A stretch of DNA of 64,000 nt, from NCBI GenBank assembly GCA_016872355.1, contig VGZY01000004.1, positions 15,688 to 79,687 on the forward strand. Reading direction: 5' to 3'. Made by a program: the position numbers and the translations under genes. The notes below the pieces were generated by a model. It was not told where the DNA came from. It made no database searches and was given only the letters and a program-made list of their open reading frames with translations. The DNA comes from SAR202 cluster bacterium. GTDB lineage: Bacteria > Chloroflexota > Dehalococcoidia > Lucifugimonadales > VGZY01. Positions 12,462 to 60,231 of the stretch are shown here, one piece after another; positions within the stretch are counted from its first letter, which is position 1; each line of letters opens with the position of its first letter.

Positions 12462-12480
12462 AGGCCTCCCTCCGGCTGTT

Positions 12481-12528
12481 ACCGACAGCTCACTGTTGCT
12501 CCGAACCCCGATTCCATCGGGGCCTACC
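12481..12528. repeat. Degenerate heptamers + CCCCGAT-TCC-ATCGGGG hairpin
   Basis: Intergenic between BNR paralogues 3 and 2. The hairpin core is shared with the 33089-33174 element. Confidence 0.6.
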
Positions 12529-13803: not shown

Positions 13804-13882
13804 GGCATGCTCCCGCGAGTTTAGCCGGTGGCGGCTCCGGTGTAGCGGAGCCGTCCGTGGGGAGCATAGTAGAGTCACAGGC

Positions 13883-36010: not shown

Positions 36011-36745
36011 GTGACGACCGACAAGAGCCTCCAGATTATCGATTCCTTCTGGGCCGAGACCTTTGGCTGCTCGATTGAGGTCCTGCGCCGCAGCGGCGTG
36101 GATGTTGTGCCCCGCACGAAAATCAGGGACCGTCGCGACGTCTTTGTCCTGGGGGCGGGCCAGGCGTACGTGGTAACTGCGCGCGAGGATGTGTTTGATG
36201 ACGTGCGCAGCGCGGTGACTGCCCCTGGCCTTGCGCAGGCAACCCTGCTGGAGGTCTCCTTCTGGGAAGGGGTGCTTGGTAGCAGGATCGACCAGGCGGT
36301 AGGTCCCACGTGGCTTGCCTATGCGGACACCAGCGACTTTTACCCGGCAGACACGTCGTCAGTGGCGCAGCTCCGCCCGTCGGACGGCTACGCGCTTGGG
36401 GCCCTCAAAAACGCGTGCTCGAAAGTGGACTGGGAGAGCGGCAACATCGATCTTGTGAAGCAGCCGACGTTCGGCTACTACCTGGGCGACAGCCTCGTCG
36501 CCGTGGCGGGCTACGAGGTGTGGGCCGGCAAGATTGGCCACATCGGCGTAGTCACCCATCCGCAGCTCCGTGGGAAGGGCTTTGGGAAGACGACCGTCAG
36601 CGCGGCCGCGGAGCACGGCCTCAAGGCCGGCCTTGTGATGCAGTACCAGACGATGGGCTCCAACCAGCCGTCGAAGGGCATCGCCCGGTCCCTCGGGTTC
36701 CGCAGGTACGGCCGGACCGTCTCGGTGAGGCTCAAGGGGCGGTAA
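36011..36745 (+). CDS. GNAT-family acetyltransferase
   Basis: 244 aa. C-terminal IGVVTHPQLRGKGFGKTTV acetyl-CoA pocket. Confidence 0.7.
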   Translation: MTTDKSLQIIDSFWAETFGCSIEVLRRSGVDVVPRTKIRDRRDVFVLGAGQAYVVTAREDVFDDVRSAVTAPGLAQATLLEVSFWEGVLGSRIDQAVGPTWLAYADTSDFYPADTSSVAQLRPSDGYALGALKNACSKVDWESGNIDLVKQPTFGYYLGDSLVAVAGYEVWAGKIGHIGVVTHPQLRGKGFGKTTVSAAAEHGLKAGLVMQYQTMGSNQPSKGIARSLGFRRYGRTVSVRLKGR

Positions 36746-37576
36746 GGTTACCCCTATCAACAGGCGGCAACTCTCTGTGTTCGAGCGTCTTTTCTTAGCC
36801 GCTATCTTCTTGACAGACTCTTCGGCGGGTAGGTTCTCCGGCATGGTTCCGCCGAGCTTGCCAATAGTTTTCCGGACCTCTTCTCCAACTCTGCGATGGG
36901 TTTCGCGGGCCTCAATCTCACCCTGCACATTCTTCCTTGCGATCTGTGCTTCGGCCTGGGTTATCCGGAACTCGTTTGCTGCTAACTCCGCTCGTCCCGC
37001 GCGGTCTAGCAAGTCCTCCTTGGGCGCAATTCCCTTCTTAGCCTTAATGTCGCCGAGCCCCATTCCGTACAACCCGCGATATCCGGCGTCATGGAACATG
37101 GCATAATTCTGCACTCCGGCTTTCTTCGCTGCGCTGTTTAGATACTTGTTCGCGTCTTTGACACGGTCTCTCAAAGCCATGCGGCGGTCCTCGTCGGACT
37201 GCTGGTCAGCAATTTCCTGTCTCCGGGTTTGCACAGCAAAATAGGTCTGGGCTATGGAAATCTGAGGCTTACTGGGGTCTCCATTCATTGCAATCAAGTA
37301 ACATGCATAGCGCGAAAGGAAGACGTCACGAAGAGGCCTTTTCGCTCCGCTGCCTATCTCGACCATTTTGGTAGTGTCAACAAAATGGTGTTTGGCATCC
37401 ACGCCCGAGCTTTCGCACGCCATGCGCGCCTTCGCGAGAACGTCTTCAAAGTTACGCCACTCGCCATAGCCGAGCAGAAGCTGAAGATCGCGAGCTCTCC
37501 AGAACTCCGCACCGCCCTCAGAAACTTGCCTGGTCTCTTCGATCCTCGCTATTGTGTGTGGCGCATCCATTAGCAT
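36359..37576 (-). CDS. dinD: DNA-damage-inducible protein D (DinD-like); 3' end uncertain
   Basis: The first ~268 aa (..FWRARDLQLLLGYGEWRNFEDVLAKA..ACYLIAMNGDPSKPQI..AQTYFAVQTRRQE..) match DinD. The ORF then continues ~130 codons antisense through the GNAT gene with no stop. Lower GC than the flanks. Confidence 0.7.
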   Translation of the reverse strand: MLMDAPHTIARIEETRQVSEGGAEFWRARDLQLLLGYGEWRNFEDVLAKARMACESSGVDAKHHFVDTTKMVEIGSGAKRPLRDVFLSRYACYLIAMNGDPSKPQISIAQTYFAVQTRRQEIADQQSDEDRRMALRDRVKDANKYLNSAAKKAGVQNYAMFHDAGYRGLYGMGLGDIKAKKGIAPKEDLLDRAGRAELAANEFRITQAEAQIARKNVQGEIEARETHRRVGEEVRKTIGKLGGTMPENLPAEESVKKIAAKKRRSNTESCRLLIGVTLPPLEPHRDGPAVPAEPEGPGDALRRLVGAHRLVLHHKAGLEAVLRGRADGRLPKALPTELRMGDYADVANLAGPHLVARHGDEAVAQVVAERRLLHKIDVAALPVHFRARVFEGPKRVAVRRAELRH

Positions 37577-37603: not shown

Positions 37604-38773
37604 CTACGTCTCGTCGATGAAGCCCGGAGGCGCGTCTACCTGGTGGGTCATCGTCGGCTTGGGCTGGTACTTGGGGCCCTCGTACACCTTGCCGGCGTAG
37701 ATGATCACCTGCGGCAGGATGCGCTCCTTGCCTACCCTCTTCTCGTGCAGCACGTCCAGGTACGTGAACTTGCCCTTTGCCACTTCGCTGATAGTCACGT
37801 CCGCTATGGTGCCGGGATTGAGGGTGCCGAAGACGCCCTCCTTGCGGATTGCCCTCGCGGGTGTGGAGGTGGACATCTCGATCACCTCTTCCAGCGAGAG
37901 GCCGAGGGCCAGGAACTTGGACATGGTGGTCGGCATGTCGAAGGTGGGGCCGTCCAGGTTGCGGGCGTGGATGTCCGTGCTGATCGTGGAGGGCTTGAGG
38001 CCGGCCTCAAGGCACTTCTCCATAGCCCTGAATGCGAAGCCGCGCGCGCCGTGGCCGACGTCCAGGTACACTCCCCGCTCAACTGCGTCCCAGACGGCGG
38101 GCCATATCTCGCCCTTGTGGTTCCACAGCGGATACCGGAACGACGCGTGGAAGGTGTGGGTCAGGATGTCGCCGGGATTCATGTAGTCCAGCAGGTGCGG
38201 GATCGGCGCGCCGTACGCCTCCGCCATCAGGATGCCGCCGCCGAAGTCCGCCGACTCGCGGGCGAGGGGAAGGGTCAAAAGGTGCTGCGAGTGGTGGTAC
38301 TTCATGCCGATGAGCACGTCGCTGTACCTCTTGATCATCGCGGAGGCCTCGGCTACCGTGGACGGGTTCGGGCCGTGCGGGTCCGGCATACGCGTCAGGG
38401 CGAAAATGCGCGTCTTGGCGGACGCCATATCCGTCTCCCAGTACTGCGGGAACTCCTTCGGCGTGGCGGTGCCGGCGTCCAGCACCGTCGTGCAGCCGTA
38501 GGCCATGCTGGTGGCGTCGGCGGGCACGCTCAGCTTGATTGCCTGGTTCTCGGTGTCCTTCGGACCGGTGGTGTAGTTGTGGGTGTGAAGGTCGATAAAG
38601 CCGGCCGTAACGATCTTCGTCGCGGCGCCTATGACGGTCTTTGCCTCAAGTACAGGCAGGTTGGGCCCGACCGCCGCGATCTTATCGCCCACGATCGCCA
38701 CGTCCGTGATGCCGTTGATATTCTGGGTGGAGTCTATGACTCTACCGCCCTTGATGAGCAGGTCCCACTTCAT
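37604..38773 (-). CDS. Metal-dependent amidohydrolase/deacetylase-family protein
   Basis: 389 aa from MKWDLLIKGGRVIDS...GFIDLHTHNY (HxH metal site), with later DVGHG and STDIH motifs. Confidence 0.75.
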   Translation of the reverse strand: MKWDLLIKGGRVIDSTQNINGITDVAIVGDKIAAVGPNLPVLEAKTVIGAATKIVTAGFIDLHTHNYTTGPKDTENQAIKLSVPADATSMAYGCTTVLDAGTATPKEFPQYWETDMASAKTRIFALTRMPDPHGPNPSTVAEASAMIKRYSDVLIGMKYHHSQHLLTLPLARESADFGGGILMAEAYGAPIPHLLDYMNPGDILTHTFHASFRYPLWNHKGEIWPAVWDAVERGVYLDVGHGARGFAFRAMEKCLEAGLKPSTISTDIHARNLDGPTFDMPTTMSKFLALGLSLEEVIEMSTSTPARAIRKEGVFGTLNPGTIADVTISEVAKGKFTYLDVLHEKRVGKERILPQVIIYAGKVYEGPKYQPKPTMTHQVDAPPGFIDET

Positions 38774-38835
38774 GTAAAGCTCTCCAAATGGTAGTTCTAG
38801 TAGGCAGCATTTTAGCATAAATCATGCGACTATTA

Positions 38836-39246
38836 TTATGTCACCTTCTTGCGGTAAAACGGCAGAAGTGACATTGAATTTACGCCCCTCGCGTAGGTAA
38901 GCCACAATTCGCAAGCGTCCACCGATACTATACGCAGCCCGGAGTTGTGCCTATCGGGATATCCGTTGGGGTGTTCATAGACTTGCCGTAGAGTTGCTAT
39001 CGGTATTAGAAAGTAGTCTTCGGGGTCGCCGCAAATCCACAACTCGAAGTCCGCGGATAGGCTGTTACTGTTGATATTGGATTTAAGCCGACAACTATTT
39101 TTGTATGGTGAACAAAATCGAACATGCACTCTGTAAGTCCCAACTTGATAGTTGGATCTTCCTGCGGGACTGAAGTCTCTGCCATCCGCAATCCACTCGA
39201 TGACACTTTCTTTTGCGCCTATGTTGTTAAGCTGAAAGGCAGACAT
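38836..39246 (-). CDS. Orphan low-GC hypothetical protein (possible small PD-(D/E)XK/AHJR-like nuclease fold)
   Basis: 136-aa ORF in a clearly AT-richer ~430-bp islet. The pattern YRVHVRF...ADFELWICGDPEDYFLIPIATL recalls AHJR-like endonuclease folds; the functional call is weak. Confidence 0.5.
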   Translation of the reverse strand: MSAFQLNNIGAKESVIEWIADGRDFSPAGRSNYQVGTYRVHVRFCSPYKNSCRLKSNINSNSLSADFELWICGDPEDYFLIPIATLRQVYEHPNGYPDRHNSGLRIVSVDACELWLTYARGVNSMSLLPFYRKKVT

Positions 39247-39267: not shown

Positions 39268-39969
39268 TCAATCCAGCGCATCCGCCAATGTGATGAAGTC
39301 CGTGGTCTCTATGTCCGGCTGGTACGGCGACTCCTCGTACGGCAGTCTGTACCGGTTGACGTACGCCCATCGATAGCCGCAAGCCCGCGCGCCTATGATA
39401 TCGAAAGCGTGCGCGGCGACCATCATGATCTCATGCGGCTCCTTGCCAATCACCATCGCGCCGGTGCGGTAGACGGCCGGGTGCGGCTTGAACACTCCCG
39501 CTTTCTGCACAGAGATGAGCGCGTCCAGCTCACACGGAATCCTGTTCGCCGCGAGGTGCTCCAGGTACGCTTGCTCCCCATTGGACAGCGCGACGAGCTT
39601 GTAGCGCTTCTTGAGCCGCCGCATCCCCTCGGAAACGTCCTTATAAGGCGATAGCCGCTGCCATGCCTGCATAAGCTCTCGTACCTCGTCGTCCGTGAAA
39701 GCGATGCCGTTCAGCCGCAGGGTATAAACCAGCGCTTTCCGGCACGTCTCTAAATAGCCGCTGTGGCCGAGCTGCATCATAGAGTCCTGGTACTGCTCAA
39801 TGCGTTGCCGCCCGCGCCACTGGTCGAAGAAGGTCTCCGCGCTCACGGCGGCCTTCTTCGCCTATAGGAACTGCCGCGTAGGCGGCGTCATGCTGCCGGT
39901 AAGGTCCAGCACTGTGCCGAAAATGTCAAAGGCGAGCGTGTTAACGCGGGACAGATCGGATGTTGTCAT
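39268..39969 (-). pseudogene. HAD-family haloacid-dehalogenase-type II hydrolase, interrupted by one in-frame TAG
   Basis: ATG 39967-39969: MTTSDLSRVNTLAFDIFGTVLDL (DxxGT motif) ...RQFL, then TAG at 39862-39864. It continues in the same frame: AKKAAVSAETFFDQWRGRQRIEQ...LVALSNG...VFKPHPAVY...AAHAFDIIGA. Confidence 0.75.
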
Positions 39970-40013: not shown

Positions 40014-40883
40014 TCACAATCCCCGCACCCACTCGATCTGCCTTTCCAATCCCTCCACCGGCCCGAACGTCTCCAGCAATATCGTTGCGTCCATGCCACG
40101 GATTGAGCGGTGGAATGGGCGGGGCAATGTGCCGGTGCCGAGGTCTCCGTGGGTGTCTGCACGGCCGCGGGGGTCGTACAGGAAGTTGTCGCTCCAGTGG
40201 ACGTGGCGGACTTTGGGGGCGAGGTCTAGGAATTTCATCAGCTCCCGTTCGCGGTGCTCTGTCGGGAAGCGCTGAACGTATGTGCAGGCGTGGCTGGCGT
40301 CCAGCGTGAGGCCAACGTTGGATTTCCCGATGTCGTCGTACGCCTGCGAGAGATCGTCAGGTGTGACGCCGAAGAACTGGTACGCCTGCTTTGACCAGTC
40401 TACCTGGTCGCCGGTGGTCTCCGGCGCGATGCCGGTCCACTCCAGCCCCTGATTTTCGATCACTATCTCCACGGCGTACTTCGCCGCGTAGTCTGCGATC
40501 TGCCGGTAGCCGTCTATCATGCGGGCGTAGTCGCCGTAGGTGACGCGCGGCGGGTCCGCGTCGCGCCACACCATCGCGTTGAAGTGGATGCTTACCTGTT
40601 TCAGCTTCGGGAAGTCGCGCACCATGTCTATGTAGTCCATGACCGCCCGGATGCATAGCTTCCGGTAGGCGTCGTCCGTTGCGCCGACGTTGAGGCCCAG
40701 GCCATCGATGGACGTAGGGCCGTGGGCGCTGATCATGATGTCGCGATACGGGAGCATCCGGTCGCGGGTGCTGTGTATCTCGCCCTCGACAGCTAGGCCG
40801 AGGCGCTGGAGTGCTTCGAGGGGGTAGTGCATCATGCCGGAGAGCGGCGGACGGCGGAGATTCTGAAAGGTTGCCTGGCGCAT
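40014..40883 (-). CDS. Xylose-isomerase-like TIM-barrel protein (sugar phosphate isomerase/epimerase family), paralogue 1
   Basis: 289 aa. VRHVHWSDNFLYDPRGRADTHGDLGTGTLP and LTLDASHA motifs are shared by all four tandem paralogues. Confidence 0.75.
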   Translation of the reverse strand: MRQATFQNLRRPPLSGMMHYPLEALQRLGLAVEGEIHSTRDRMLPYRDIMISAHGPTSIDGLGLNVGATDDAYRKLCIRAVMDYIDMVRDFPKLKQVSIHFNAMVWRDADPPRVTYGDYARMIDGYRQIADYAAKYAVEIVIENQGLEWTGIAPETTGDQVDWSKQAYQFFGVTPDDLSQAYDDIGKSNVGLTLDASHACTYVQRFPTEHRERELMKFLDLAPKVRHVHWSDNFLYDPRGRADTHGDLGTGTLPRPFHRSIRGMDATILLETFGPVEGLERQIEWVRGL

Positions 40884-40928
40884 CTCACCCTCTCTGTCGC
40901 GACATCTCTCCCATCAAGGGAGAGACAA
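40884..40928. repeat. Degenerate hairpin repeat (CTCACCCTC ... TCTCTCCC-ATCA-AGGGAGAGA)
   Basis: Intergenic between TIM-barrel paralogues 2 and 1, followed by CGACAGC-type heptamer-like units. Confidence 0.6.
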
Positions 40929-40995
40929 AGCAATGAACAGCCGACAGCCGCCCTCACCGGTCCGCAAGCCCGGAGCCGGGAGAGGAACACAGCCG

Positions 40996-41889
40996 CTAAA
41001 GCCCTGCGATGAACTCCATCTGCTTTTCGGTTTCTTCGACGGTGCCGAAGGTCTCCATCAAGACGGTGGCGTCCAGCGCCTTAACGGCTTTGTGGAACGC
41101 GCGGGGCAGCTCGCCTACCCCGAGGAGCTGGTGGGCGTCAGTGAGGCCCGCCGGGCCGGTCAGAGAGCTATCGCTCCAGTGGACGTGGCGGATTAGGTCT
41201 GGCCGCGCAAGGAAGGAGAAGAGGACCTTCTCACGCTCGGCCGCCGGGAAGGTGCGGGCGTAGGTCGTCGCGTGGCTGGTGTCCAGGCAAAGCCCGACGT
41301 TGGGCATGTTGATATCCAGGGCGATCTTGACCCACTCCTCAGGCGATGTGCCGAAGTAGCGGTTCTGCTTGCTCCAGTCCACCTTCATGCCGTCCGTGTT
41401 CGGCGGCAGGAGAGCCCAGTAGCGCGCGTGGTTCTCAAGCGTAAGCTCCAGCTTGCGCTTCGCGGCGTGGGCACCTATTTCCTTGAGCGCGTCGATAAGG
41501 CGGCTATACTCGCCGCGGTTGCCGCGAGTCTGCTCCTTCATCTCTCGCTTACCGATCAGCGAGGGGTGCGGCACGCCGTTCCACTGCTCCGGGCTGAAGT
41601 GGATGTTGACCTTCTTCACATGCGGGAAGTCGCGCATCATATCCAGGTAGTCGGTCGTATCCTTGATCGACATGCGACGCCACTCGTCGTCGGTGGCGGC
41701 GTAGTTCATCCGCAGCTCCTGCATCTCGGTCGGCCCGTGGGCGCTGACCATGACCTCCTTGTACGCGAGCATCTCCTCGCGCGGGCTGTGCATGTAGCCT
41801 TCCACGCCGGCCAGGCCAAGGCGCTTTACGTCTGCAACAGGGAGCTGTTGCATGCCGATTAGAGGGTGCCTTGTAGTTGTCTTGGGCAT
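40996..41889 (-). CDS. Xylose-isomerase-like TIM-barrel protein, paralogue 2
   Basis: 297 aa. IRHVHWSDSSLTGPAGLTDAHQLLGVGELP. Confidence 0.75.
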   Translation of the reverse strand: MPKTTTRHPLIGMQQLPVADVKRLGLAGVEGYMHSPREEMLAYKEVMVSAHGPTEMQELRMNYAATDDEWRRMSIKDTTDYLDMMRDFPHVKKVNIHFSPEQWNGVPHPSLIGKREMKEQTRGNRGEYSRLIDALKEIGAHAAKRKLELTLENHARYWALLPPNTDGMKVDWSKQNRYFGTSPEEWVKIALDINMPNVGLCLDTSHATTYARTFPAAEREKVLFSFLARPDLIRHVHWSDSSLTGPAGLTDAHQLLGVGELPRAFHKAVKALDATVLMETFGTVEETEKQMEFIAGL

Positions 41890-41900
41890 TGGAGATTCCT

Positions 41901-42758
41901 CTACAGTTTGGAAATGTAATCGAGCTCTTCTTCCAGCGACTCCACCGATTCGAAGTGCTCCAGGAGGAGCGTGGCGTTGAGCGACTTAACCTTCTTGTGA
42001 AACTCTCTTGGCAAGCTGCCTTTGCCGAGGAGGACGTGGTGGCCCTTACGGCCGCGCTTATCCATGAGGTAGTTATCGTTCCAGTGCACGTGCGTGATGA
42101 GGTGCGATTGGGCCATGTACGCCATTGCGATCGCGGGGCGCTTCTCGGCGTCGAACAGGGCGGCGTAGGTGCACAGGTGGCTGCCGTCCAGGCACAGGCG
42201 CACGTTGGGGCGGTTGACGTCCTCGCATACCTTGATCCAGGCCTCCGGCGCGACCCCGAATACGTGGTTGCGCTGCGTCCAGTCCACCTCCCACGCCTCC
42301 GTCGTCTCCGGGATGTCCGTCCACTTCAGCGTATCGTTCTCCAGCACCACCTCGATCCCGAACTTCACGGCGAACGCTCCCACCTGCCGGATGCCGTCGA
42401 TAAGCAGCCCGTACTCGCCGACGTGACCGCGCGGCTGCTCGACGTGGAAGTACCGCTGCGTATGGCAGTGGAGGACGACCTGACGGAGGTTAGGGAAATG
42501 CCGCACCTTGTCGATGTAGGCGGTGATTGCGTCGATGGAGAACTGGCGGAACTCGCTGTCCGCTGCGGAGATGTTGTACCGGTACTCGCCGCTGGGCCCG
42601 TTGGGGATGTGGGCGCTGATGATCAGGTCTTGGAAAGCGGTCGTCTTCTCCGGGCTCAGGTCGGTCTTCACCTCGGTCTTGAGGCCGAGGCGGCGGAGGG
42701 TATCGGCTCCGGCCGTCATCGGAGCGGATATGGCGTACTTAGTGCCGACGTTTCTCAC
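41901..42758 (-). CDS. Xylose-isomerase-like TIM-barrel protein, paralogue 3
   Basis: 285 aa. ITHVHWNDNYLMDKRGRKGHHVLLGKGSLP. Confidence 0.75.
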   Translation of the reverse strand: MRNVGTKYAISAPMTAGADTLRRLGLKTEVKTDLSPEKTTAFQDLIISAHIPNGPSGEYRYNISAADSEFRQFSIDAITAYIDKVRHFPNLRQVVLHCHTQRYFHVEQPRGHVGEYGLLIDGIRQVGAFAVKFGIEVVLENDTLKWTDIPETTEAWEVDWTQRNHVFGVAPEAWIKVCEDVNRPNVRLCLDGSHLCTYAALFDAEKRPAIAMAYMAQSHLITHVHWNDNYLMDKRGRKGHHVLLGKGSLPREFHKKVKSLNATLLLEHFESVESLEEELDYISKL

Positions 42759-42768
42759 AGAGGCGCCT

Positions 42769-43629
42769 TTAAAGGCTATTTATGAATTCCAGCTCCCCTT
42801 CGAGCTCTTCAATGGAGTAGAAGTGCTCTATGAGCAGCCACGCGTCCAGGCTCTTGATCGTGCGGTGGAGCTCAATGGGCGTCGTCCCATTGTTGAGGAC
42901 GGTGTGGTTGTCCACCCTGCCCTTCGGGTCGTACAGATAGTTATCGTTCCAGTGGACGTGGCGGATCAGGTCCGGCCGCTTCACGAACTCTAGAATTTTA
43001 TCCTTGCGCTGCTCGGCCGGGAACATGTGCGAGTAGGTGCAGGCGTGGCTGGAGTCCAGGCAGAGCCCCACGTTCGAAAGGTTAATGTCCAGCGCCGCCT
43101 GTATCCACTCGTCCGGCGAGTTGCCGAAACAGGCGTTGCGGTACGTCCAGTCGAACTTGTGCGCCTCCTCTGCGTCGGGGATTCCGACGTAGTACGAGTT
43201 GTTATTCTCCAGCACCATTTCGAGGCCGTGCTTTGCACAGTGGCGGCCGATCTGGCGGAAGCCGTCCACAAGGCGGTCGTATGTCCCTTGCTTGCCGCGC
43301 GTTTGCGTGGCGTCGCTCCACTGGCGGGGCGAGAAGTGGACGTTGATCATCCGCACCTTCGGGAACTGCCGGGCGCGTTCTACGTAGTCGATGATGTGCT
43401 CGATGGACTCCTTGCGGTAATGGTCGTCCACGGCGGCGATGTTCAGGCGCAGGCCGCCCTTCGTGCCGGGCGCGTGGGCGCTGTACATCACCTCGGAGAG
43501 GTGGGCGACGTCCTTGAGATCATCGGACATCGCGGCCTCGGTGATTAGGCCGAGCCGCCTGAGGTTGTCCAGCCCGGCCTTGGTCGTGACGCCGAGCGGG
43601 TGCTTGAGCTGGTTGTATTTCTTCGAAAT
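42769..43629 (-). CDS. Xylose-isomerase-like TIM-barrel protein, paralogue 4 (conserved N-terminus only reachable from an ATT codon)
   Basis: The track ORF starts at ATG 43528-43530. However, 33 upstream in-frame codons (ISKKYNQLKHPLGVTTKAGLDNLRRLGLITEAA) align with the paralogue N-termini (..HPL.G....L.RLGL..). ATT at 43627-43629 lies 8 nt after AGGAG. Confidence 0.65.
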   Translation of the reverse strand: MSKKYNQLKHPLGVTTKAGLDNLRRLGLITEAAMSDDLKDVAHLSEVMYSAHAPGTKGGLRLNIAAVDDHYRKESIEHIIDYVERARQFPKVRMINVHFSPRQWSDATQTRGKQGTYDRLVDGFRQIGRHCAKHGLEMVLENNNSYYVGIPDAEEAHKFDWTYRNACFGNSPDEWIQAALDINLSNVGLCLDSSHACTYSHMFPAEQRKDKILEFVKRPDLIRHVHWNDNYLYDPKGRVDNHTVLNNGTTPIELHRTIKSLDAWLLIEHFYSIEELEGELEFINSL

Positions 43630-43649
43630 GGCTGGTGCTCCTGAAAACG

Positions 43650-44546
43650 TTATCGCTTCGTCGCCTTCCCCAACCCTAACTGCTCCACTGCCTTCTTTAT
43701 GACCTCGCGCTGGCCGGGCCTGAGCGGCGCGAGCGGTGGGCGCGGGTCTCCGCAGTCCATGCCTATGAGATCGCTCACCATCGCCTTCATCCCCGCCAGG
43801 TACTCCACCTGCAAGAGGATGTCAAACGTCTCGGTCGCCTTCTTCTGTGCCGCGACCGCGCGGGCGATGTCGCCTGCCTCGTATGCCCTCTTTATCTCCA
43901 CCCACATCTGCGGCGCGATACCGAGCGGCCCGTCCACACATCCCGTTCCGCCTATCGTGAGCGAGGGGAGGTAGAGGCGGAAGTCGCCGATCAGCGTGGA
44001 GAGGCCCATTTTCGCCTAGTCGACCATCGCGCCGTAGTCCATGGAGGCGTGCTTAAGGCCTACGAGCTGCGGGACCTTCTCCTTTATCTTCGCCATCAGC
44101 GCGGGCGTAATCTCGATGCCCGTCGCGATGGGAAGGTTGTACACGAAGAGCGGCAGGTTTGCGGCCGCGCCGACGACGCGGTAGTACTCGACGACGGCGT
44201 CGTGGCCGGGGTTGAAGAAGTGCGGCGGGAGCGCGCAGATGGCCTCCACGCCCGCCTTCGCGGCGTTCTCCGCGTTCTTCGCCGCGCGCGCCGTCGTGGC
44301 CGCGCCTACCTGCATGATGACCGTGGTGCGGCCCTTGTTCTGGTCCGCGGAAATCTCCGCAATGCGCCTGTTCTCCTCGTCCGTCAGGTATACGCTCTCG
44401 CCGGTGCCGCCGGCCGTCCAGAAGCCGTCGACTCCCGCGCGGATGTTCATCTCCATAACGGCGCGGAAAGCCTCTTCGTTGACCTTGCCGTCCTTCCTGC
44501 TCATCGGCGTGATGGCCGCCGGGAAGACACCCTTGTAATGCTTCAC
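43650..44546 (-). pseudogene. DapA/N-acetylneuraminate-lyase-family (DHDPS-like) lyase, paralogue 1, interrupted by one in-frame TAG
   Basis: GGTGES, YNLP and the catalytic-Lys region VGLKHAS are present. ...MDYGAMVD is followed by TAG at 44016-44018, then AKMGLSTLIGDF... in the same frame. In paralogue 2 the aligned residue is Phe (MIWFSEMGL). The start is uncertain (GTG 44544-44546 proposed). Confidence 0.8.
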
Positions 44547-44682
44547 GTCATGCCTCACATTCCGGCGCGGGTCTCCCGCGCCGCCGACATTGTACCACCG
44601 GGAATTGCCGTTCGCCCTGTCTAAAAACATGTAGCCGCACAGCATTCTGTGCGGCTACATAGTCACGACCTGGCGGTCCAGT

Positions 44683-45627
44683 CTACTTCTTGGCCGCGGC
44701 GGCCGTCTTGAGGGTGCGCTTGAAGTCGTGCTTGCCTGCGCCGGTGATGCCCCACTCCTCGCAGACCTTGTTGATGGCCTTGCGGTTCTCAGCCGACATG
44801 GGGAGGACCGGCCGGCGCGGGTTGCCGCACTCGATGCCGGTGCGCTCGCTGATCATCGCCTTCATCGAGCCCATGTATCCGTACTTGAGGATGAGGTTGA
44901 ACAGGTCGTTGGCCTTACGCTGGGCGGCGACGCCGCGCTTCAGATCGCCGGCCTTCCAGGCGTTCCAGATCTCCATCCACAACTCCGGCGCGACGGACGG
45001 GGGGCCGTCCACGGTGCCGGACGCGCCCACGGTCAGCGCCGGGAAGAGGAGCATGCCGGAGCCGGTCAGGACCTTCAGCCCCATCTCCGAGAACCAGATC
45101 ATGTTGTTGAAGTTCAGGGCTGAGTGCTTGAGGCCGACCATCTGCGGGACCTTGTCCTGCAGCTTCTTCATGAGGTCGACGGTGATCTCGATCTGGGTGG
45201 CCTGAGGCAGGTTGTAGACCATGAGGGGCAGGTTGGTCGCCGCGCCGATCGCGCGGTAGTGCTCGACGACCGCATCGTCGCCCGGGCGGACGAAGAAAGG
45301 CGGTACAGCGCAGAGCGCCTCCACGCCGGCCTTGGCCGCGTTCTCGGCATTCTTGACTGCTCTGTCGGTCGTTATCGCCCCCACGTGCATGATGATGGTG
45401 GAGCGGCCCTTGTTCTGGTCCGCCGCAATCTTCGCGATGCGCGTGTTCTCCTCGTCCGTGAGCATCACGCTCTCGCCGGTGCCGCCTGCAGTCCAGAATC
45501 CGTGGATGCCGCAGCGGATGTTGTCCTCCAGCATCGCGCGGAACGCCTCTTCGTGGACCTCACCCTTCTCCGTCATGGGGGTGATGATCGCCGGATAAAT
45601 GCCTTCAAATGTGGGCTTGTTGGCCAT
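44683..45627 (-). CDS. DapA/N-acetylneuraminate-lyase-family lyase, paralogue 2 (intact)
   Basis: 314 aa. YPAIITPM, GGTGES, VYNLP, VGLKHSA. Confidence 0.85.
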   Translation of the reverse strand: MANKPTFEGIYPAIITPMTEKGEVHEEAFRAMLEDNIRCGIHGFWTAGGTGESVMLTDEENTRIAKIAADQNKGRSTIIMHVGAITTDRAVKNAENAAKAGVEALCAVPPFFVRPGDDAVVEHYRAIGAATNLPLMVYNLPQATQIEITVDLMKKLQDKVPQMVGLKHSALNFNNMIWFSEMGLKVLTGSGMLLFPALTVGASGTVDGPPSVAPELWMEIWNAWKAGDLKRGVAAQRKANDLFNLILKYGYMGSMKAMISERTGIECGNPRRPVLPMSAENRKAINKVCEEWGITGAGKHDFKRTLKTAAAAKK

Positions 45628-47341: not shown

Positions 47342-49060
47342 CTAGAAAATCCAGGGCCAGGGTACGTCAATTCGCTGGATCTTGCTCTTGCCGGAGTTGC
47401 CCTGGGCCGAGACCGGTATCCAGATCTCCGTCTCCGAGACTCTCAGGAACCCGGTGGTATAGTTCCCCCCAGTGTCGAACGCGGTCTTGGAGTTCGTCTT
47501 TGTGTTGAAATAAACAATGGTTGGGACGTCTCTAGGCGTCCAGGCGATGGAGCTGATAACGTCTGAGGCGGTGATATCAAGAAGTTTGTATCCGCTGTAA
47601 CTGTACTCAAGGAGCTGGTTGGTGAGGGGGTCCAGGCGCATCAATCTGGTAGCACCATTACTCTCTCCCGGCAGGCCATAGTTCTGTTCACCCGTAGGGT
47701 GGCGCGTCCAAACTGACAGGAACCAGGGCCGCCCGTCGGAGTCAACCACCGCGATCTTTCTGTAATGGCCTTTGGCAACATCGATCTCATGCATTCCGTA
47801 CCCGTACAAATCCTCGTAGTAGCCGATCGGTTGCACCTTGATGTTCGGGTTGGTAGTGGGCGCCACGGTCCAGCGGGTAACCTTATTCGATGTGGTATCG
47901 AGGCTGGCAACGTGCAGTGTCGTGTCTCTCACGTGACCGGAGAACCAGACGGTTGTGCCGTTTACAACAATAACGGCCGCGTTCGCGGTGGTTGCATTGG
48001 GGACAGGCCACAGGGTCAGGTTATTGGTCCAGCGGTTCAGCCTCCCGATCTGAGAGTCCACCCCATCGATAGCGGAGGGCAAGGAGAACCAGATGTTCCC
48101 GTAGCTGTCGCGACCGTAGAACTTGATCAGGTGGGGCTCACCGGCGCAGCACATGGTAGTGGCAAGTGTCCACTCGGTAATGGCGTTCGTATCCGGGTTC
48201 AACCGGCCTACCTTTGCGCCGGCCAGCGTCACATACCAGGGGTTGCCCGAGCCGTCAACCCAGAAGAGATTCGCGTCACCGCCTGCTGTGGGGATCTGCC
48301 ATCGGGTGAAGGTGTCTTTCTCCGGGTCCAGGGCGCCGATTATGTTGAGAAAAGGCTCGGTGAAGTAGAGTTTCCCACCGAAGCCAATGGCCATTGAACC
48401 GCCGAGGGTGTCGTTGGTCGGCCATTCGACGAGGTTGTTTGTCGCCAGGTCAAGCTGCCCTATTCTGCCCCGGTCCACTGACGGGTCCGATATAATTATG
48501 GACTCCGCGAAACACAGCTTCTGATTGGGCGCGTCCTTCACGAGGGCGTATGGGGTGTAGCTGAAGGAGTGAGGCAAGTTCCACTCAGTTGCGGTAGCGG
48601 AGCCTGCCAGGGCCTGGTAAGCGGGAAATGCGGAAAGGGCGACTGCCGAGACAACTGCAAGAGGCAGCAGGGCGTTGCGCCGCCGCGTTGCCAGAGCTAC
48701 CACCATCAGCGCGCCGCCAATGGCGACGATGACTGCAACCGGTAACGCAGGACCATCGGAGCTCTCCGGCAGGCCGAAGGAAATCGGCGCCATGCCCGTG
48801 CTACGGGACGCCGTGGTGACTGCAGGCTCGACATTGAGGTACACAGGGGGCGCCCCGGCATCGATGGGGCTGATTGAAACGTCGATGTGGGCGGCAGTCT
48901 CTGCCGGCTGACCGGAGGCTGCGCCTTGCTGCAGGGCGTCAGCGGGGACGGCGTTCGCCGTCCACGCAAACATGCCGGCCACTGCTATCGCAATCAACGC
49001 CACCGCCGCCCCCAGCCACCCCGCCACCCGCGTGCTCGCCGGGAACCTGACGTACCTCAT
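47342..49060 (-). CDS. Membrane-associated beta-propeller protein with Vgb/streptogramin-lyase-like repeats
   Basis: 572 aa with three N-terminal hydrophobic segments. Repeats include GKLYFTEPFLNIIGALDPEKDTFTRWQIP, GNPWYVTLAGAKVGRLNPDTNAITEWTL and GNIWFSL..QIGRLNRWTNNLTLWPVP. GC is lower than average. Confidence 0.6.
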   Translation of the reverse strand: MRYVRFPASTRVAGWLGAAVALIAIAVAGMFAWTANAVPADALQQGAASGQPAETAAHIDVSISPIDAGAPPVYLNVEPAVTTASRSTGMAPISFGLPESSDGPALPVAVIVAIGGALMVVALATRRRNALLPLAVVSAVALSAFPAYQALAGSATATEWNLPHSFSYTPYALVKDAPNQKLCFAESIIISDPSVDRGRIGQLDLATNNLVEWPTNDTLGGSMAIGFGGKLYFTEPFLNIIGALDPEKDTFTRWQIPTAGGDANLFWVDGSGNPWYVTLAGAKVGRLNPDTNAITEWTLATTMCCAGEPHLIKFYGRDSYGNIWFSLPSAIDGVDSQIGRLNRWTNNLTLWPVPNATTANAAVIVVNGTTVWFSGHVRDTTLHVASLDTTSNKVTRWTVAPTTNPNIKVQPIGYYEDLYGYGMHEIDVAKGHYRKIAVVDSDGRPWFLSVWTRHPTGEQNYGLPGESNGATRLMRLDPLTNQLLEYSYSGYKLLDITASDVISSIAWTPRDVPTIVYFNTKTNSKTAFDTGGNYTTGFLRVSETEIWIPVSAQGNSGKSKIQRIDVPWPWIF

Positions 49061-51256: not shown

Positions 51257-51285
51257 TTGACACCCGTTTCTCCCAGGTTTACACT
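51257..51285 (+). promoter_or_regulatory. Near-consensus sigma70 promoter for the Udh-like array
   Basis: TTGACA (51257-51262), 17-nt spacer, TACACT (51280-51285). AGGAG lies 7 nt before ATG 51315. Confidence 0.65.
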
Positions 51286-51314: not shown

Positions 51315-52028
51315 ATGCGCGTGCTCGTAACCGGCGCGGCCGGTCGAATCGGCTCAACTGTCATAAATGGCCTCAAGCACAAGTACGAATTCCGCGGTCT
51401 GGACGTCGCTCCCATGCCCAATCTCAAGGACTCCATCGTCGGCAGCTCCAACGACTGGGCGACGGTCGAAAAGGCTATGCCGGGCGTGGATACGGTCATC
51501 CACCTGAGCAACAACGGCCCCGAGTGGGAGCAGGCGAAGCAGTCGATGATCGCTACGTACAACGTGTACGAGCTTGCCGCGCGCAATGGCGTAAAGCACA
51601 TCGCATTCGCCAGCCGCGCCGGCCTCCTCCCTCGCTCCTACTACCCCCGCACCATGACGCGCACCGCCGACCTGCTCCCCAGGCCGGATAGCTACTACTC
51701 GATCACGAAGTCTTTCGGCGAGGCAATGGGCGACATGTACTCCGCGAAGCACGGGATCAGCATCGTCTCCGTTCGCATCGGCAACTTCAGCCTGGAGCGG
51801 GACAAGCCTGCCGACCCTCACCACCTGAGCCATGGCGACTGCGTACGGCTGTGGGACGCCGCGATCAGCTACAACGGCGGCAAGCACGTCCGCGTCTTCG
51901 GCGTGTCCGACAGCAACTGGCCGGTCTATGACCTGGACCACGGCCGCAAGACGATCGGCTACTACCCGCAGGACAAGTCCATCGTGCCGAAGGAGCTCCA
52001 GGTGGACGACCCGCCGAAGAAGAAGTAG
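51315..52028 (+). CDS. Short NAD-dependent epimerase/dehydratase-family enzyme (uronate-dehydrogenase-like), paralogue 1
   Basis: 237 aa. VLVTGAAGRIGS, PDSYYSITK (YxxxK), VSVRIGN. Confidence 0.7.
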   Translation: MRVLVTGAAGRIGSTVINGLKHKYEFRGLDVAPMPNLKDSIVGSSNDWATVEKAMPGVDTVIHLSNNGPEWEQAKQSMIATYNVYELAARNGVKHIAFASRAGLLPRSYYPRTMTRTADLLPRPDSYYSITKSFGEAMGDMYSAKHGISIVSVRIGNFSLERDKPADPHHLSHGDCVRLWDAAISYNGGKHVRVFGVSDSNWPVYDLDHGRKTIGYYPQDKSIVPKELQVDDPPKKK

Positions 52029-52108
52029 GCGGCGCCGGTCGAGCATTCGCCTTCCGGCGGGAGATAGCGTCTCCGGCGCCGGCAGTAGCAAAAACCTGGG
52101 AGATTCCA

Positions 52109-52807
52109 ATGAAAGTCCTGATCACCGGGGCGGCGGGCAATATCGGCACCGCCCTCATAAAAGCGTTCGACAAGAGCAAGTACCAGATCCGCGGCCTGGA
52201 CATCCGGCCCATGCCCCTGCTGACCGACACGATCGTCGGCGACGTCACTGACTTCGCGACCGTGTCGCGCGCGACGAAAGACATGGACGCGGTGATTCAC
52301 CTTACGAACGTGGGCGGCGAATGGCAGCAGGCCCTGCAGTCGATCACCGGCACCTACAACGTCTTCGAGTCCGCGCACCAGAACGGCGTGAAGACAATCG
52401 CGTTCGCCAGCCGAGGCGGCCTGTTCCCCCAGGCCCGCATACCCCGCAAGGTCCAGCGCACGGCAGACCTGCTCTGGTTCCCGGACTCCTACTACACGAT
52501 CACCAAGGTTGTGGGCGAGGGCTTCGGCGATATGTACTCAGCGCGCTACGGGATGAACGTCGTCTCGGTGCGAATAGGCGGCTACGAGCCGTCCGGCAAT
52601 CCGCTGATCGACCCTCACCAGCTCAGCGAGCGAGACTGCGTGGCGGCGTTCGAGGCGGCGATCAACTACAAGGGCGGCAAGCACGAGCGCGTCTTTGGGG
52701 TGTCCGACAGCAACTGGCAGCTCTACGACGTGGAGCACGGCCGGAAGGCAATCGGCTATTACCCGAAGGACAAGTCGGTAGTCCCCGAAGAAAAAATCCA
52801 GCGGTAG
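52109..52807 (+). CDS. Uronate-dehydrogenase-like NAD enzyme, paralogue 2
   Basis: 232 aa. VLITGAAGNIGT, PDSYYTITK, VSVRIGG. Confidence 0.7.
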   Translation: MKVLITGAAGNIGTALIKAFDKSKYQIRGLDIRPMPLLTDTIVGDVTDFATVSRATKDMDAVIHLTNVGGEWQQALQSITGTYNVFESAHQNGVKTIAFASRGGLFPQARIPRKVQRTADLLWFPDSYYTITKVVGEGFGDMYSARYGMNVVSVRIGGYEPSGNPLIDPHQLSERDCVAAFEAAINYKGGKHERVFGVSDSNWQLYDVEHGRKAIGYYPKDKSVVPEEKIQR

Positions 52808-52817
52808 GAAGTTTTCA

Positions 52818-53519
52818 ATGCGAGTTCTCATTGCCGGCGCGGCCGGCACAATCGGCACCGTACTTACAAAAGGGCTGAAGGACCGGCACCACGTCCGCGG
52901 GCTGGACCTGCGGCCCATGCCCCTGCTGGAAGACACCGTAGTCGGCAGCATCACGGACTGGGACACTGTTTCGAAGGCCACGCAGGGGATGGACGCCGTC
53001 ATCCACCTTACGACCCTCGGCTACGAGTTCGAGCAGGCTATGGGGTCGATCACGGGCTCCTACAACGTGTTTGAGTCCGGGCGCCTGAACGGCGTGAAGG
53101 CGATTGCCTTCGCCAGCCGCGCGGGCCTTTTCCCCGGCAGCCGCATACCCAAGACCATCCAGCGCACCGCCGATACGCTCTGGTCGCCGGACTCCTTCTA
53201 CACTATCTCGAAGGTTGTGGGAGAGGGCTTCGGCGACATGTACGCCTCGCGCTACGGCATCAGCGTGGACTCCGTCCGCATCGGCGGCATCGACCCCGTG
53301 GAGCCGGAGACGCCCAACCATCCGCATCGCCTGACGCACGGCGATTGCGTCCGCGTCTTTGAGGCGGCGATCAACCACCGCAAGGGTACACACGAGCGAT
53401 CCTTCGGCGTGTCGGACGGCGGGAACTGGCAGCTTTACGACATGGAGCATGGGCGGAAGGCCATCGGGTACCATCCTCAGTCTGTGGCGGTTGTCCCGCC
53501 GGACAAGATCGGGAAGTAG
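52818..53519 (+). CDS. Uronate-dehydrogenase-like NAD enzyme, paralogue 3
   Basis: 233 aa. VLIAGAAGTIGT, PDSFYTISK, DSVRIGG. Confidence 0.7.
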   Translation: MRVLIAGAAGTIGTVLTKGLKDRHHVRGLDLRPMPLLEDTVVGSITDWDTVSKATQGMDAVIHLTTLGYEFEQAMGSITGSYNVFESGRLNGVKAIAFASRAGLFPGSRIPKTIQRTADTLWSPDSFYTISKVVGEGFGDMYASRYGISVDSVRIGGIDPVEPETPNHPHRLTHGDCVRVFEAAINHRKGTHERSFGVSDGGNWQLYDMEHGRKAIGYHPQSVAVVPPDKIGK

Positions 53520-53624: not shown

Positions 53625-53860
53625 TCGAAATCTTAATCGGTATCGGCGACGACGGAGACGAGTAGCGGGAAGCGGCCGCACAGCGAGTCTGGCGGCCCGA
53701 TGCAGATCGGGCCAAGGTGTGAGCAGACGCGACGCGCCCCGGCGAATATCACTCCCGAGCCGAGCTTAACGAAGGTGTCCTGAGGCCCGCCGCTCAGGAA
53801 ACTAGGGTGGTACCGCGGGTAGATCATGCCCGTCCCTTGCGCAGGGACGGGCATTTTTGT
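53625..53860 (+). promoter_or_regulatory. T-box riboswitch leader, Ile specifier (AUC)
   Basis: Canonical T-box sequence AGGGTGGTACCGCG (53803-53816). Specifier-loop-like GAATATCA with ATC at 53748-53750 followed by a purine. Terminator ATGCCCGTCCC-TTGCGCA-GGGACGGGCAT + TTTTT (53826-53858), directly upstream of ileS. TGcTAAAAT extended -10-like box at 53609-53617. Confidence 0.85.
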
Positions 53861-59089: not shown

Positions 59090-59268
59090 CTTGACCTCCA
59101 TCGGGCGATATTTGGCCGGAGGGACGCCCAAGTCCCGCGTATCATGCGCCCGGGCGACTCTGGGGTGTAAAGGCGGAACGGCAGCAAGAAACTCGCACAT
59201 CGCACAAATCCGACCGGATGTCGTATCATCCACTCGCGCGCATTCTGAGACACCGCACGGAGGGACTC

Positions 59269-60231
59269 ATGGCTACTATCGGCAGCGGGAAGTATACCTA
59301 CGAGATTACCGGCCAGGACTGGGGCAAGCTTCTTGAGGGGTGGTCCTACAAGGAGGCGACGGCCGTAGCCGTGGACGCGAAGGACAATGTATTCGTGTTT
59401 GGCCGCGGCAAGCCGTCAGTCATCGTCATGAACAGGGACGGCGAAGTCCTCCGCTCATGGGGCGACGGCCTCTTCACTAACCCCCACGGAATAACCATCG
59501 GCCCGGACGGCGCCGTCTACTGCGTGGATGTCGGCGACCATACCGTGCGCAAGTTCACGCCCGAGGGCAAGCTGCTGATGACCCTCGGCACGCCGGGCAA
59601 GGCGACGATGGACAAACCCTTCAACCGCCCTTCCCACGCGGCCGTAGACCCGCGCGATGGCAGCCTCTACGTATCGGACGGCTACAACAACGCCCGTGTC
59701 CACAAGTTCTCGCCGGACGGCAAGCTGCTGCACTCCTGGGGCCGGTCCGGTACCGACCCCGGCGAGTTCAACATTGTCCACAACGTTGCGGTGGACAGGG
59801 AAGGCTGGGTCTACGTCGCGGACCGGGAGAACCATCGCGTACAGGTCTTCGACTCAAAGGGCAAGTTCGAGTCCCAGTGGGTGAATCTTGCGCCAGCGTC
59901 GTGTATCTACGTGGATACGCGCGCCGAGCCGGTAGTATACGTGGGCGAGTTCTATGCCGGCCTGCCGGAGTCACCGAGCGGCTACGGCAACTGGACGCAA
60001 TCTCGCCTTGGCCCGCGCCTTACGGTCCTGGACCGCAAGGGCAAGGTTCTGGCGCGCGTGGGCGACCGGCCCATGGGCCTGGAGACGGGCCAGTTCGTCG
60101 CGCCTCACGGCATCGCCGTGGACTCGAAGGGGGACGTGTACGTCGCGGAGGTATCGTTCTCGATCTACGGCTCAAAACAGACGCCGCCGCGCACCGTTCG
60201 GTCATTCCAGAAGCTCGTGAGGAAGGGATAG
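59269..60231 (+). CDS. NHL-repeat six-bladed beta-propeller protein (peptidylamidoglycolate-lyase-like)
   Basis: 320 aa from MATIGSGKYTYE. Repeats include PHGITIGPDGAVYCVDVGDHTVRKF, PSHAAVDPRDGSLYVSDGYNNARVHKF, VHNVAVDREGWVYVADRENHRVQVF and PHGIAVDSKGDVYVAE. Confidence 0.7.
   Translation: MATIGSGKYTYEITGQDWGKLLEGWSYKEATAVAVDAKDNVFVFGRGKPSVIVMNRDGEVLRSWGDGLFTNPHGITIGPDGAVYCVDVGDHTVRKFTPEGKLLMTLGTPGKATMDKPFNRPSHAAVDPRDGSLYVSDGYNNARVHKFSPDGKLLHSWGRSGTDPGEFNIVHNVAVDREGWVYVADRENHRVQVFDSKGKFESQWVNLAPASCIYVDTRAEPVVYVGEFYAGLPESPSGYGNWTQSRLGPRLTVLDRKGKVLARVGDRPMGLETGQFVAPHGIAVDSKGDVYVAEVSFSIYGSKQTPPRTVRSFQKLVRKG

Follow-up and report, generated by a model that had tools for sequence, protein, structure and literature searches.

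In several known gene clusters, a 2-keto-3-deoxy sugar-acid aldolase of the DHDPS (dihydrodipicolinate synthase) family is encoded next to the enzyme for the preceding step; examples are yagE-yagF and yjhH-yjhG of Escherichia coli, the archaeal KD(P)G aldolase clusters and L-KDF aldolase. Here, we describe an array of this general layout in a 64,000-nt stretch of DNA (the window; positions 15,688 to 79,687 of contig VGZY01000004.1, assembly GCA_016872355.1) that is part of the metagenome-assembled genome (MAG) of a freshwater or marine SAR202 bacterium (Chloroflexota, Dehalococcoidia). The array consists of two DHDPS-family lyase genes (DapA1 and DapA2) and four genes for metallo-TIM-barrel proteins (TIM1 to TIM4), and it is an enlarged copy of a small operon that is conserved in SAR202/Dehalococcoidia. 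As in the yagE-yagF-type clusters, a DHDPS lyase gene is followed by a partner gene, and in one related locus (L115) an enolase-superfamily gene comes after one lyase and a TIM gene after the next. However, the partner in the conserved operon is a TIM metalloprotein and not an IlvD/EDD or enolase-superfamily dehydratase, and the lyases form a distinct subfamily.

Paralogue expansion for sugar-acid catabolism is already known from SAR202. Lim et al. 2023 (PMC10444878) placed COG0329 (DHDPS/NAL) among seven SAR202 paralogue sets proposed for parallel non-phosphorylative pathways for sugars, lactones and sugar acids, and reported that cultured cells respond to such substrates. Our locus comes from the same organism group, whose expansions were also treated by Saw et al. 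2020 (PMC6946804), but the TIM family is not included in the scheme of PMC10444878. Neither paper describes a xylose-isomerase-like TIM/COG1082 partner, a DHDPS-TIM(-HAD) operon or sialidase-like proteins, and in the full text of the SAR202 literature searched we found no TIM family, no DHDPS by name and no sialidases, leaving COG0329 in Lim et al. as the only relevant entry. Relative to these papers, the DHDPS-TIM(-HAD) operon and the SAR202-restricted TIM family, which resembles MJ1311 and endonuclease IV, are new.

The operon was defined by comparing 80 loci from a one-genome-per-species scan and 80 from a metagenome scan, with neighbouring genes assigned by hidden Markov model (HMM) scans. 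Single-linkage clustering of stop-to-stop open reading frames (ORFs) also produced antisense and alternative-frame clusters; re-checking of cluster members with HMMs brought a HAD hydrolase gene to light. A DHDPS gene of one subfamily lies directly 5′ of a TIM gene on the same strand at 45 of 82 genome loci. Across genomes and metagenomes, this applies to 51 of the 126 TIM genes with at least 1.2 kb of upstream sequence, at a median gap of about 28 nt. The gene-neighbourhood comparison suggested in a preliminary description of this DNA thus finds the pairing in many other genomes, and the window has the same arrangement, with DapA1 and DapA2 ahead of TIM4 to TIM1. Usually, the module contains one lyase and one TIM gene; one lyase with two TIM genes (L001, L003, L004, L095) and two lyases with one TIM gene (L044, L045, L050, L115) also occur, and the window's two plus four is the largest module among the compared loci. 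The DHDPS and TIM trees share clades. A homologue of the HAD hydrolase gene that follows TIM1 stands directly 3′ of TIM in 12 other loci, including the closest relatives of the window, which implies that the order DapA-TIM-HAD is ancestral for the window's subclade; the HAD gene is part of this conserved unit. Beyond it, the loci share no general neighbour, and most pairs are found among housekeeping genes (plsX/fabG, tilS, 2-oxoacid:ferredoxin oxidoreductase).

All four TIM proteins are members of PF01261 (AP_endonuc_2; E 6e-18 to 1e-24, 65.9–84.5 bits, gathering threshold 31.1). Their mutual resemblance and shared HVHW[SN]D...D.H motif, pointed out in the preliminary description, are confirmed: the other three are 37–46% identical to TIM1 and the motif is present in four out of four. 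An NCBIfam HMM scan returned no fitting model for them. The family is compact: of 1.84 billion cluster representatives, 60 match at E<1e-30, and scores fall sharply beyond them. With one genome per species, 79 of 80 TIM-bearing genome loci are from MAGs and single-amplified genomes of Dehalococcoidia/Chloroflexota/SAR202, the exception being a short contig. For TIM2, an AlphaFold2 (AF2) model was obtained with a pLDDT (predicted local distance difference test) of 93.7. The best solved relative of the family is MJ1311 (3wqo), the 'D-tagatose 3-epimerase-like protein' of Methanocaldococcus jannaschii (profile E 9.5e-13), which is also the top Foldseek match (template modelling score, TM, ~0.6); UlaE, endonuclease IV and ketose 3-epimerases come next, likewise at TM ~0.6. 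MJ1311 and the TIM proteins have in common the TIM barrel, the motifs HAP...N, EN, D..H, H.H..D and D.H..G.G, and the ligand set of endonuclease IV, here outside a typical nuclease. In contrast to the window proteins, MJ1311 is archaeal and has no known DHDPS partner, and the similarity is limited to 16–18% identity at TM ~0.6–0.7.

Endonuclease IV (Nfo) is an AP endonuclease with a trinuclear zinc site, and eight of its nine metal ligands align with the TIM family (hhalign probability 95.8%). Residues H97, E152, D203, H206, H237, D251, H253 and E279 of TIM2 fall on H109, E145, D179, H182, H216, D229, H231 and E261 of Nfo, at positions kept in 40–47 of 47 family members; H51 of TIM2 (47 of 47) matches the ninth ligand, Nfo H69, by motif only. 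Because the family keeps all nine ligands, 'xylose-isomerase-like', as the proteins had been called, is the name of a fold only, and a close kinship with sugar isomerases was not borne out. Ketose 3-epimerases and enzymes of the UlaE and IolE type do match in family (PF01261), in fold and in a four-ligand E-D-H-E core, whose equivalents are present in the TIM proteins. However, profile matches to them reach E 5e-7 or worse, superpositions give TM ~0.55–0.6 at a root-mean-square deviation of 5–7 Å, and the TIM family has five additional metal-ligand positions. Its invariant N62, R60, R71, S205, T209, W238 and H266 are not known in those enzymes, and the invariant family residues are all kept in the four TIM proteins of the window. 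The active site looks suited to two or three metals, suggestive of a hydrolysis or an elimination; it is the full endonuclease-IV-type ligand set that favours such a step.

The same ligand set could also mean that the TIM proteins are endonuclease-IV-like nucleases or phosphodiesterases, acting in DNA repair or phosphoester scavenging, and that their adjacency to a lyase has no metabolic meaning. Besides the conserved ligands, this reading can draw on the endonuclease IV structures among the top fold matches and on a DinD-like gene 2.4 kb downstream on the same strand. We consider it very improbable. The Nfo equivalog models NF002198 and NF002199 give the TIM proteins 16–17 bits against cut-offs of 244 and 315, and their fold is no more similar to Nfo than to sugar epimerases (TM ~0.6 for both). 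The genes sit in a metabolic operon with a tightly linked, co-evolving lyase in dozens of genomes, and up to four paralogues per operon would be unlike a repair nuclease. In 2014, Uechi and co-workers reportedly described for MJ1311 the same nine residues in a barrel without a DNA-binding groove, which also speaks against a nuclease.

The partner lyases belong to the DHDPS/NAL superfamily (N-acetylneuraminate lyase, NAL; PF00701, 190 bits), with the Schiff-base lysine K167 and Y138 of the YN motif invariant in 45 of 45 subfamily members. DapA1 and DapA2 are sister paralogues (57.6% identity). The subfamily is marked by the motifs AGGTGES, YNLPQATQ, GLKHS and an invariant VDGPP, with AGGTGES standing at the position of GTTGES in DapA; NAL reads GSTGE there. 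Despite their working names, the lyases do not qualify as DapA: DapA1 scores 160.2 bits with TIGR00674 against a cut-off of 206.15, and Arg138 of DapA (YNxPxRT), which binds aspartate semialdehyde, is replaced by Ala in YNLPQATQ. A housekeeping DapA was considered for the TIM-linked gene, as lysA adjoins it in L001, L003 and L004, and rejected, since Arg138 is missing and a canonical DapA with YNVPSRT is found separately in SAR202 loci L070 and L076. In three loci (L168, L170, L171; 7001–7903), a subfamily DHDPS about 60% identical to DapA1 stands alone, flanked on one side by D-Tyr-tRNA deacylase/acyl-CoA synthetase genes and on the other by an Exo_endo_phos gene. In one SAR202 clade (L017 5916–6869, L022, L025, L039, L009 17279–18268), a second, very divergent DHDPS-like family, with YHTHW for YNxP and SIKWS around the Lys, is encoded a few kb away from the module.

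From the enzyme families and their context, we infer a substrate class, a reaction direction and a set of candidate TIM reactions. On balance, we lean towards a catabolic module within the non-phosphorylative sugar/lactone/sugar-acid network proposed for SAR202, acting on a 2-keto-3-deoxy (ulosonic) sugar acid. In its core, a gene for a distinct class I lyase (DHDPS/NAL-like, pyruvate-type, with a Schiff-base lysine) precedes one or two TIM genes. Cleavage of the 2-keto-3-deoxy acid by the lyase would yield pyruvate plus an aldehyde; the adjacent metal-dependent step, most plausibly a hydrolytic or eliminative one on a sugar lactone or sugar acid, would fall to the TIM enzyme. For that step, hydrolysis of a lactone or ester and dehydration to the keto-deoxy acid are equally tentative candidates, and isomerisation or epimerisation of the carbonyl product is a slightly weaker one; other reactions make up a smaller remainder. 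It is conceivable, though doubtful, that the TIM proteins represent a novel enzyme class acting on small molecules, with an endonuclease-IV-type trinuclear centre used for chemistry other than that of nucleic acids (perhaps lactone/ester hydrolysis or sugar-acid dehydration), and that they work in obligate tandem with a dedicated Schiff-base lyase, giving SAR202 its own route for a class of ulosonic or sugar acids inaccessible to other bacteria.

The most informative relatives in this respect are L115 and L117, where a gene for a uronate dehydrogenase-like (Udh-like) protein diverges from the series DHDPS – enolase-superfamily (MR/MLE) – DHDPS – TIM; in L044, from another lineage, a Udh-like gene diverges from DHDPS – DHDPS – TIM. 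These Udh-like proteins are 55–59% identical to three tandem Udh-like proteins of the window. Two readings of the L115 cluster would be equally economical: each lyase gene may be paired with a dehydratase gene directly after it (MR/MLE in one case, TIM in the second), much as in yagE-yagF and yjhH-yjhG of E. coli, or the four activities may form a single oxidative route in which TIM is a lactonase or lactone isomerase. The Udh/Gci/KdgD set of Agrobacterium is mirrored by the L115 cluster, and a uronate/aldarate route can be drawn up along these lines: a Udh-like enzyme forms an aldarolactone, a cycloisomerase or dehydratase leads to 5-keto-4-deoxy-glucarate, the DHDPS protein is a dehydratase/decarboxylase of the KdgD type, and TIM is the lactone isomerase or lactonase. 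The window trio would fit, as its best PDB matches are uronate dehydrogenases (E 4e-19 to 5e-15) at near full length (residues 2–231) and it keeps the YxxxK motif with Y128 and K132 invariant, at about 35 amino acids less than Udh. Aldehyde dehydrogenase genes adjoining the module in L067, L082, L018 and L019 fit as well. We nevertheless regard the uronate route as unlikely. The KdgD models stay far below their cut-offs (TIGR03249, 86 vs 374; NF002958, 100 vs 278) and match residues 8–185 only, and the NAL and DapA models outscore them; the earlier suggestion of a keto-deoxy-glucarate dehydratase is therefore not upheld. Moreover, Udh-like genes lie near the module in only three other loci (two lineages) of about 160, the window trio is 5.7 kb away, past a sigma factor gene and two genes with signal- or transmembrane-like N-termini, and the window cluster has neither an enolase-superfamily gene nor a stand-alone aldehyde dehydrogenase gene.

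The window trio was described earlier as standing under a near-consensus promoter, which holds: a TTGACA-17-TACACT promoter-like site (51257–51285) precedes it. With a terminator-like hairpin (12-bp stem with T-run, 53826–53854) at the other end, the trio looks like a self-contained three-gene unit.

Another set of neighbours points to nonulosonic acids (sialic-acid-like, KDN, Kdo-like). Here, cytoplasmic BNR exo-glycosidases would free an ulosonic acid from imported glycosides, a NAL-like lyase would convert it to pyruvate and an (N-acyl)hexose, and TIM together with a deacetylase-family amidohydrolase would process the sugar. The best NCBIfam match of DapA1 is indeed an N-acetylneuraminate lyase model (NF003164, 165.6 bits), and the lyase motif MHVGA (AHVG-type) is NAL-like. 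BNR_2 genes and genes for ABC transporters of the Opp/Dpp type stand next to the module in L019 (DHDPS – TIM – HAD – BNR – two ABC permeases) and in L023 (SBP_bac_5 – permease – BNR, divergent from DHDPS – TIM), and the window has a co-directional amidohydrolase/deacetylase-family gene downstream. It also encodes three BNR_2 paralogues which, as noted before, have no signal-like N-terminus. Still, this route appears quite unlikely. Both NAL cut-offs are missed (NF003164, 165.6 vs 281; TIGR00683, 141.6 vs 382), and the lyases read TGSGM around the NAL acidic pair, with S-G-M at the equivalents of D191 and E192, which bind the glycerol tail of sialic acid in E. coli NAL. BNR genes are near the module in those two loci only, the BNR array of the window is 27 kb away, and its matches to sialidases are weak and partial (E 7e-9). 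The preliminary description had considered that the BNR and Udh-like arrays might share one pathway with the lyase/TIM array; this is not sustained, with such arrays close to the module in just a few of the roughly 160 loci. Its broader acid-sugar theme remains plausible given the Udh-like genes beside clusters in L115/L117 and L044, the BNR and ABC genes in L019 and L023, and COG0329 in PMC10444878.

Several observations weigh against the sugar-acid module that we favour. Most DHDPS-TIM pairs are isolated, with no transporter, regulator, dehydrogenase or dehydratase nearby, and a DHDPS neighbour is missing from about 60% of TIM genes, whose contexts are heterogeneous. As only a handful of loci have sugar-acid neighbours, the pathway context rests on those loci, and because SAR202 genomes are rich in SDR (short-chain dehydrogenase/reductase), MR/MLE and BNR paralogues, some of the adjacencies could be due to chance. 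None of the NCBIfam equivalog cut-offs (DapA, NanA, KdgD, archaeal KDG aldolase, HpaI-type) is reached by the lyases, PDB profile and Foldseek comparisons yielded no close solved structure for the TIM or lyase subfamilies, and trinuclear sites of the endonuclease IV type are known for phosphodiester hydrolysis and not for sugar-acid chemistry. Finally, the same DHDPS subfamily (57–64% identity) stands alone, without TIM, in 7–9 Mb genomes of other lineages. It follows from these homologues that the function of the lyase is autonomous and that the TIM partner is a SAR202 addition; the conservation of the lyase across lineages hints at a common substrate.

TIM genes without a DHDPS neighbour are found beside GH32/43-like propellers, NHL/DUF1501/DUF1800 genes, SDRs, zinc-dependent alcohol dehydrogenase (Zn-ADH), an MFS transporter, a sulfatase and a luciferase-like monooxygenase. 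In L006, L007, L011 and L013 (~10.9–14 kb), a DHDPS-less TIM clade is followed by two or three tandem paralogues of a GH32/GH43-like five-bladed propeller, so that this TIM family is linked to a further array of tandem paralogues. The order DUF1800 – DUF1501 – NHL repeat – TIM is kept in at least ten genomes (L052–L063, ~6–10 kb), with the NHL homologues directly 5′ of the TIM genes. The window itself is rich in β-propellers (9646–13878, 47342–49060, 59218–60231, 62143–63579), comprising the three BNR_2 proteins, a Vgb-lyase-like protein with a signal- or transmembrane-like N-terminus, and NHL-repeat and DUF4185 proteins. A PIN-domain protein (8868–9335, minus strand), possibly the toxin of a toxin-antitoxin pair, is encoded just 3′ of the BNR array. 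More distant TIM homologues outside SAR202 were considered as a guide to function and set aside, as their contexts are heterogeneous and not transferable: in Planctomycetota they include an esterase, a ceramidase-like gene and an FGGY kinase, and on another contig GFO_IDH_MocA and solute-binding protein (SBP) genes with several clustered TIM genes.

How the window came to have four TIM genes was approached with bootstrapped neighbour-joining (NJ) trees, the only method used for the TIM phylogeny, in which the deep branching order is approximate. TIM1 and TIM2 are sisters in 196 of 200 replicates, TIM3 and TIM4 group together in 1 of 200, and the four window proteins are monophyletic in none (0/200), which rules out a recent fourfold tandem duplication. 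TIM1/TIM2 are grouped with L002/L008/L010 in 141 of 200 replicates and, in 116 of 200, this group is joined by the distal TIM copies of DHDPS-TIM-TIM operons and the single TIM of L046. As we interpret the trees, the array consists of two lyases, two proximal-type TIM genes (from two old lineages) and two distal-type TIM genes, so that the four TIM genes are apparently drawn from at least three old lineages and the lineage-specific duplications would be only two, DapA1/DapA2 and TIM1/TIM2. The array therefore reads as a long-standing operon of several genes to which a few lineage-specific duplications were added, and not as a burst of the serial duplication read from it at first.

The features of the locus are collected in Table 1. 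On the minus strand, the order is DapA1, hairpin, DapA2, TIM4, TIM3, TIM2, TIM1, HAD, 136-aa (amino acid) ORF, amidohydrolase and DinD-like gene, with gaps, in ascending coordinates, of 112, 11, 10, 119 and 37 nt between the array ORFs as the ORF tool lists them; in that listing, the second lyase gene spans 43650–44645. The six same-strand genes first described at 40014–45627 are thus present with the expected families (four PF01261 and two PF00701 proteins, all on the minus strand), but they are not six plain genes: DapA2 is interrupted by a TAG codon, TIM4 lacks a canonical start, the terminator-like hairpin divides DapA1 from the remaining array genes, and the HAD gene is also part of the unit. 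The 112-nt spacer between TIM2 and TIM1 (40884–40995, minus strand) is the sole long one within the TIM run; it contains a hairpin (TCTCTCCC-TTGA-TGGGAGAGA) and two weak terminator-like matches at 40960–40935.

Table 1. Coordinates of the lyase/TIM array, its downstream genes and the Udh-like trio (positions in the window).
Feature	Position	Strand	Description
DapA1	44683-45627	-	intact DHDPS/NAL-family Schiff-base lyase, 314 aa; PF00701 E 4.6e-56; TIM-linked subfamily
Terminator-like hairpin	44628-44661	-	15-bp stem, loop of 4, then TTTTT; directly 3′ of DapA1 stop; pattern match only
DapA2	43650-44546	-	PF00701; likely start GTG at 44546; in-frame TAG; DapA1 sister
In-frame TAG of DapA2	44016-44018	-	replaces a Phe common to 44/45 subfamily members
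TIM4	42769-43629	-	metallo-TIM barrel; PF01261 E 1.3e-23; full-length reading requires ATT start 43629-43627
TIM3	41901-42758	-	metallo-TIM barrel, 285 aa; PF01261
TIM2	40996-41889	-	metallo-TIM barrel, 297 aa, 12-aa insertion; TIM1 sister; PF01261
TIM1	40014-40883	-	metallo-TIM barrel, 289 aa; PF01261
HAD hydrolase, dehalogenase-type	39268-39969	-	44 nt 3′ of TIM1; in-frame TAG 39864-39862
136-aa ORF	38836-39246	-	co-directional, 21 nt past HAD gene; unit membership uncertain
Amidohydrolase/deacetylase-family metallohydrolase	37604-38818	-	co-directional, 17 nt past 136-aa ORF; unit membership uncertain
Udh-like extended SDR trio	51315-53519	+	237, 232 and 233 aa; tandem; possible functional link to module

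Part of this array is probably decaying in this genome, independent of its function. The TAG in DapA2 splits the gene into ORFs of 209 and 119 aa. In the HAD gene, the TAG falls between the nucleophile motif FDIFGT and the remainder of the protein, at a position where homologues have Glu or Ala. For TIM4, in-frame homology shows that the conserved N-terminus extends 5′ of the first ATG (43530), whose use would delete the first β-strands of the barrel, and no ATG, GTG or TTG is available there; the sole plausible start is an ATT, 8 nt past a GGAG and 20 nt past the DapA2 stop. The region is reproduced in one Logan contig (L083, 100% identical) and two JGI contigs, and TIM2 and DapA1 match NCBI proteins labelled 'SAR202 cluster bacterium' at 100% identity. 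One of the JGI contigs (L090, same sample) agrees with the window in all but one of 2343 bases; the mismatch (L090 position 2186, window 42582) turns a TIM3 Tyr codon (TAC) into TAA and could be either a nonsense polymorphism or a low-coverage error. The TAG codons of the HAD and DapA2 genes are 4.2 kb apart, and both are present in the 100%-identical second assembly.

Two other explanations for the stop codons were considered and rejected. An assembly artefact is not supported by the Logan and JGI contigs, which carry the same sequence including the DapA2 TAG (L083 and L090), with the limit that all of them may share one sample. Reassignment or read-through of TAG conflicts with its use as the stop codon of pyrB, a pyrC-like gene, DapA1, the amidohydrolase, a Udh-like gene and the NHL gene, all intact. 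As TAG is a normal stop and the window encodes no tRNA gene, and hence no suppressor tRNA, we read both codons as nonsense mutations and not as recoding. A scan for split ORFs across the host genome was noisy at its G+C content of 62%.

Taken further, these defects could make the array largely a relic in this genome, a set of old duplications whose copies are now being lost, and no active, diversified pathway. The stop at a conserved Phe of DapA2, the stop in the HAD gene, the missing start of TIM4, the TIM3 variant and the ordinary use of TAG in a window without a suppressor tRNA are all in keeping with this. We rate it as rather unlikely, as DapA1, TIM1, TIM2 and TIM3 are intact in the window, the invariant residues are kept in all four TIM proteins and, apart from its single stop, DapA2 retains the conserved positions of the subfamily. 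Furthermore, ATT is usable as a start codon, and the TIM3 variant is one base in one low-coverage contig. The substrate diversification that had been read from the array nevertheless fits poorly with the nonsense codons and missing start seen in this genome, which amount to partial decay.

Downstream of TIM1, the HAD protein scores above the cut-off for TIGR01428 (HAD type II, L-2-haloacid dehalogenase; 134.6 vs 125.4) and has its Asp nucleophile in the FDIFGT motif, upstream of the TAG and without the DxD of phosphatases. True dehalogenase activity is doubtful, because the positions that form the halide cradle of L-DEX (N177 and W179) read H and F. The 136-aa ORF has no family match in Pfam or NCBIfam and no homologue in the related loci. 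The amidohydrolase scores 303.7 bits with NF006689, below the cut-off of 371, and its sole good homologue among the related loci (L007) is not adjacent to TIM. The DinD-like gene (36359–37576, minus strand) matches NF008573 with 330 bits over residues 10–266 of a 405-aa ORF. This ORF is placed between the amidohydrolase and GNAT genes, overlaps the convergent GNAT gene by ~390 nt, is in frame with the amidohydrolase ORF across the TAG of the latter, and is absent from the gene calls of the Logan record.

SAR202 bacteria rank with the most numerous cells in the dark ocean; their catabolism, rich in paralogues, is believed to influence what becomes of refractory dissolved organic carbon. Published models of this metabolism feature paralogues of the enolase superfamily, SDRs, lactonases and aldolases, and the TIM family is not among them. 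Should the module merely be another sugar-acid aldolase cluster, the finding would be an ordinary one. If, however, the DHDPS-TIM(-HAD) operon does function as a pathway step, the SAR202 network would gain a lineage-specific enzyme, and the search for substrates would have a small pair of proteins to test. In enzymological terms, this would place in a metabolic context the orphan MJ1311-type proteins, in which the metal site of endonuclease IV is housed in a non-nuclease barrel.

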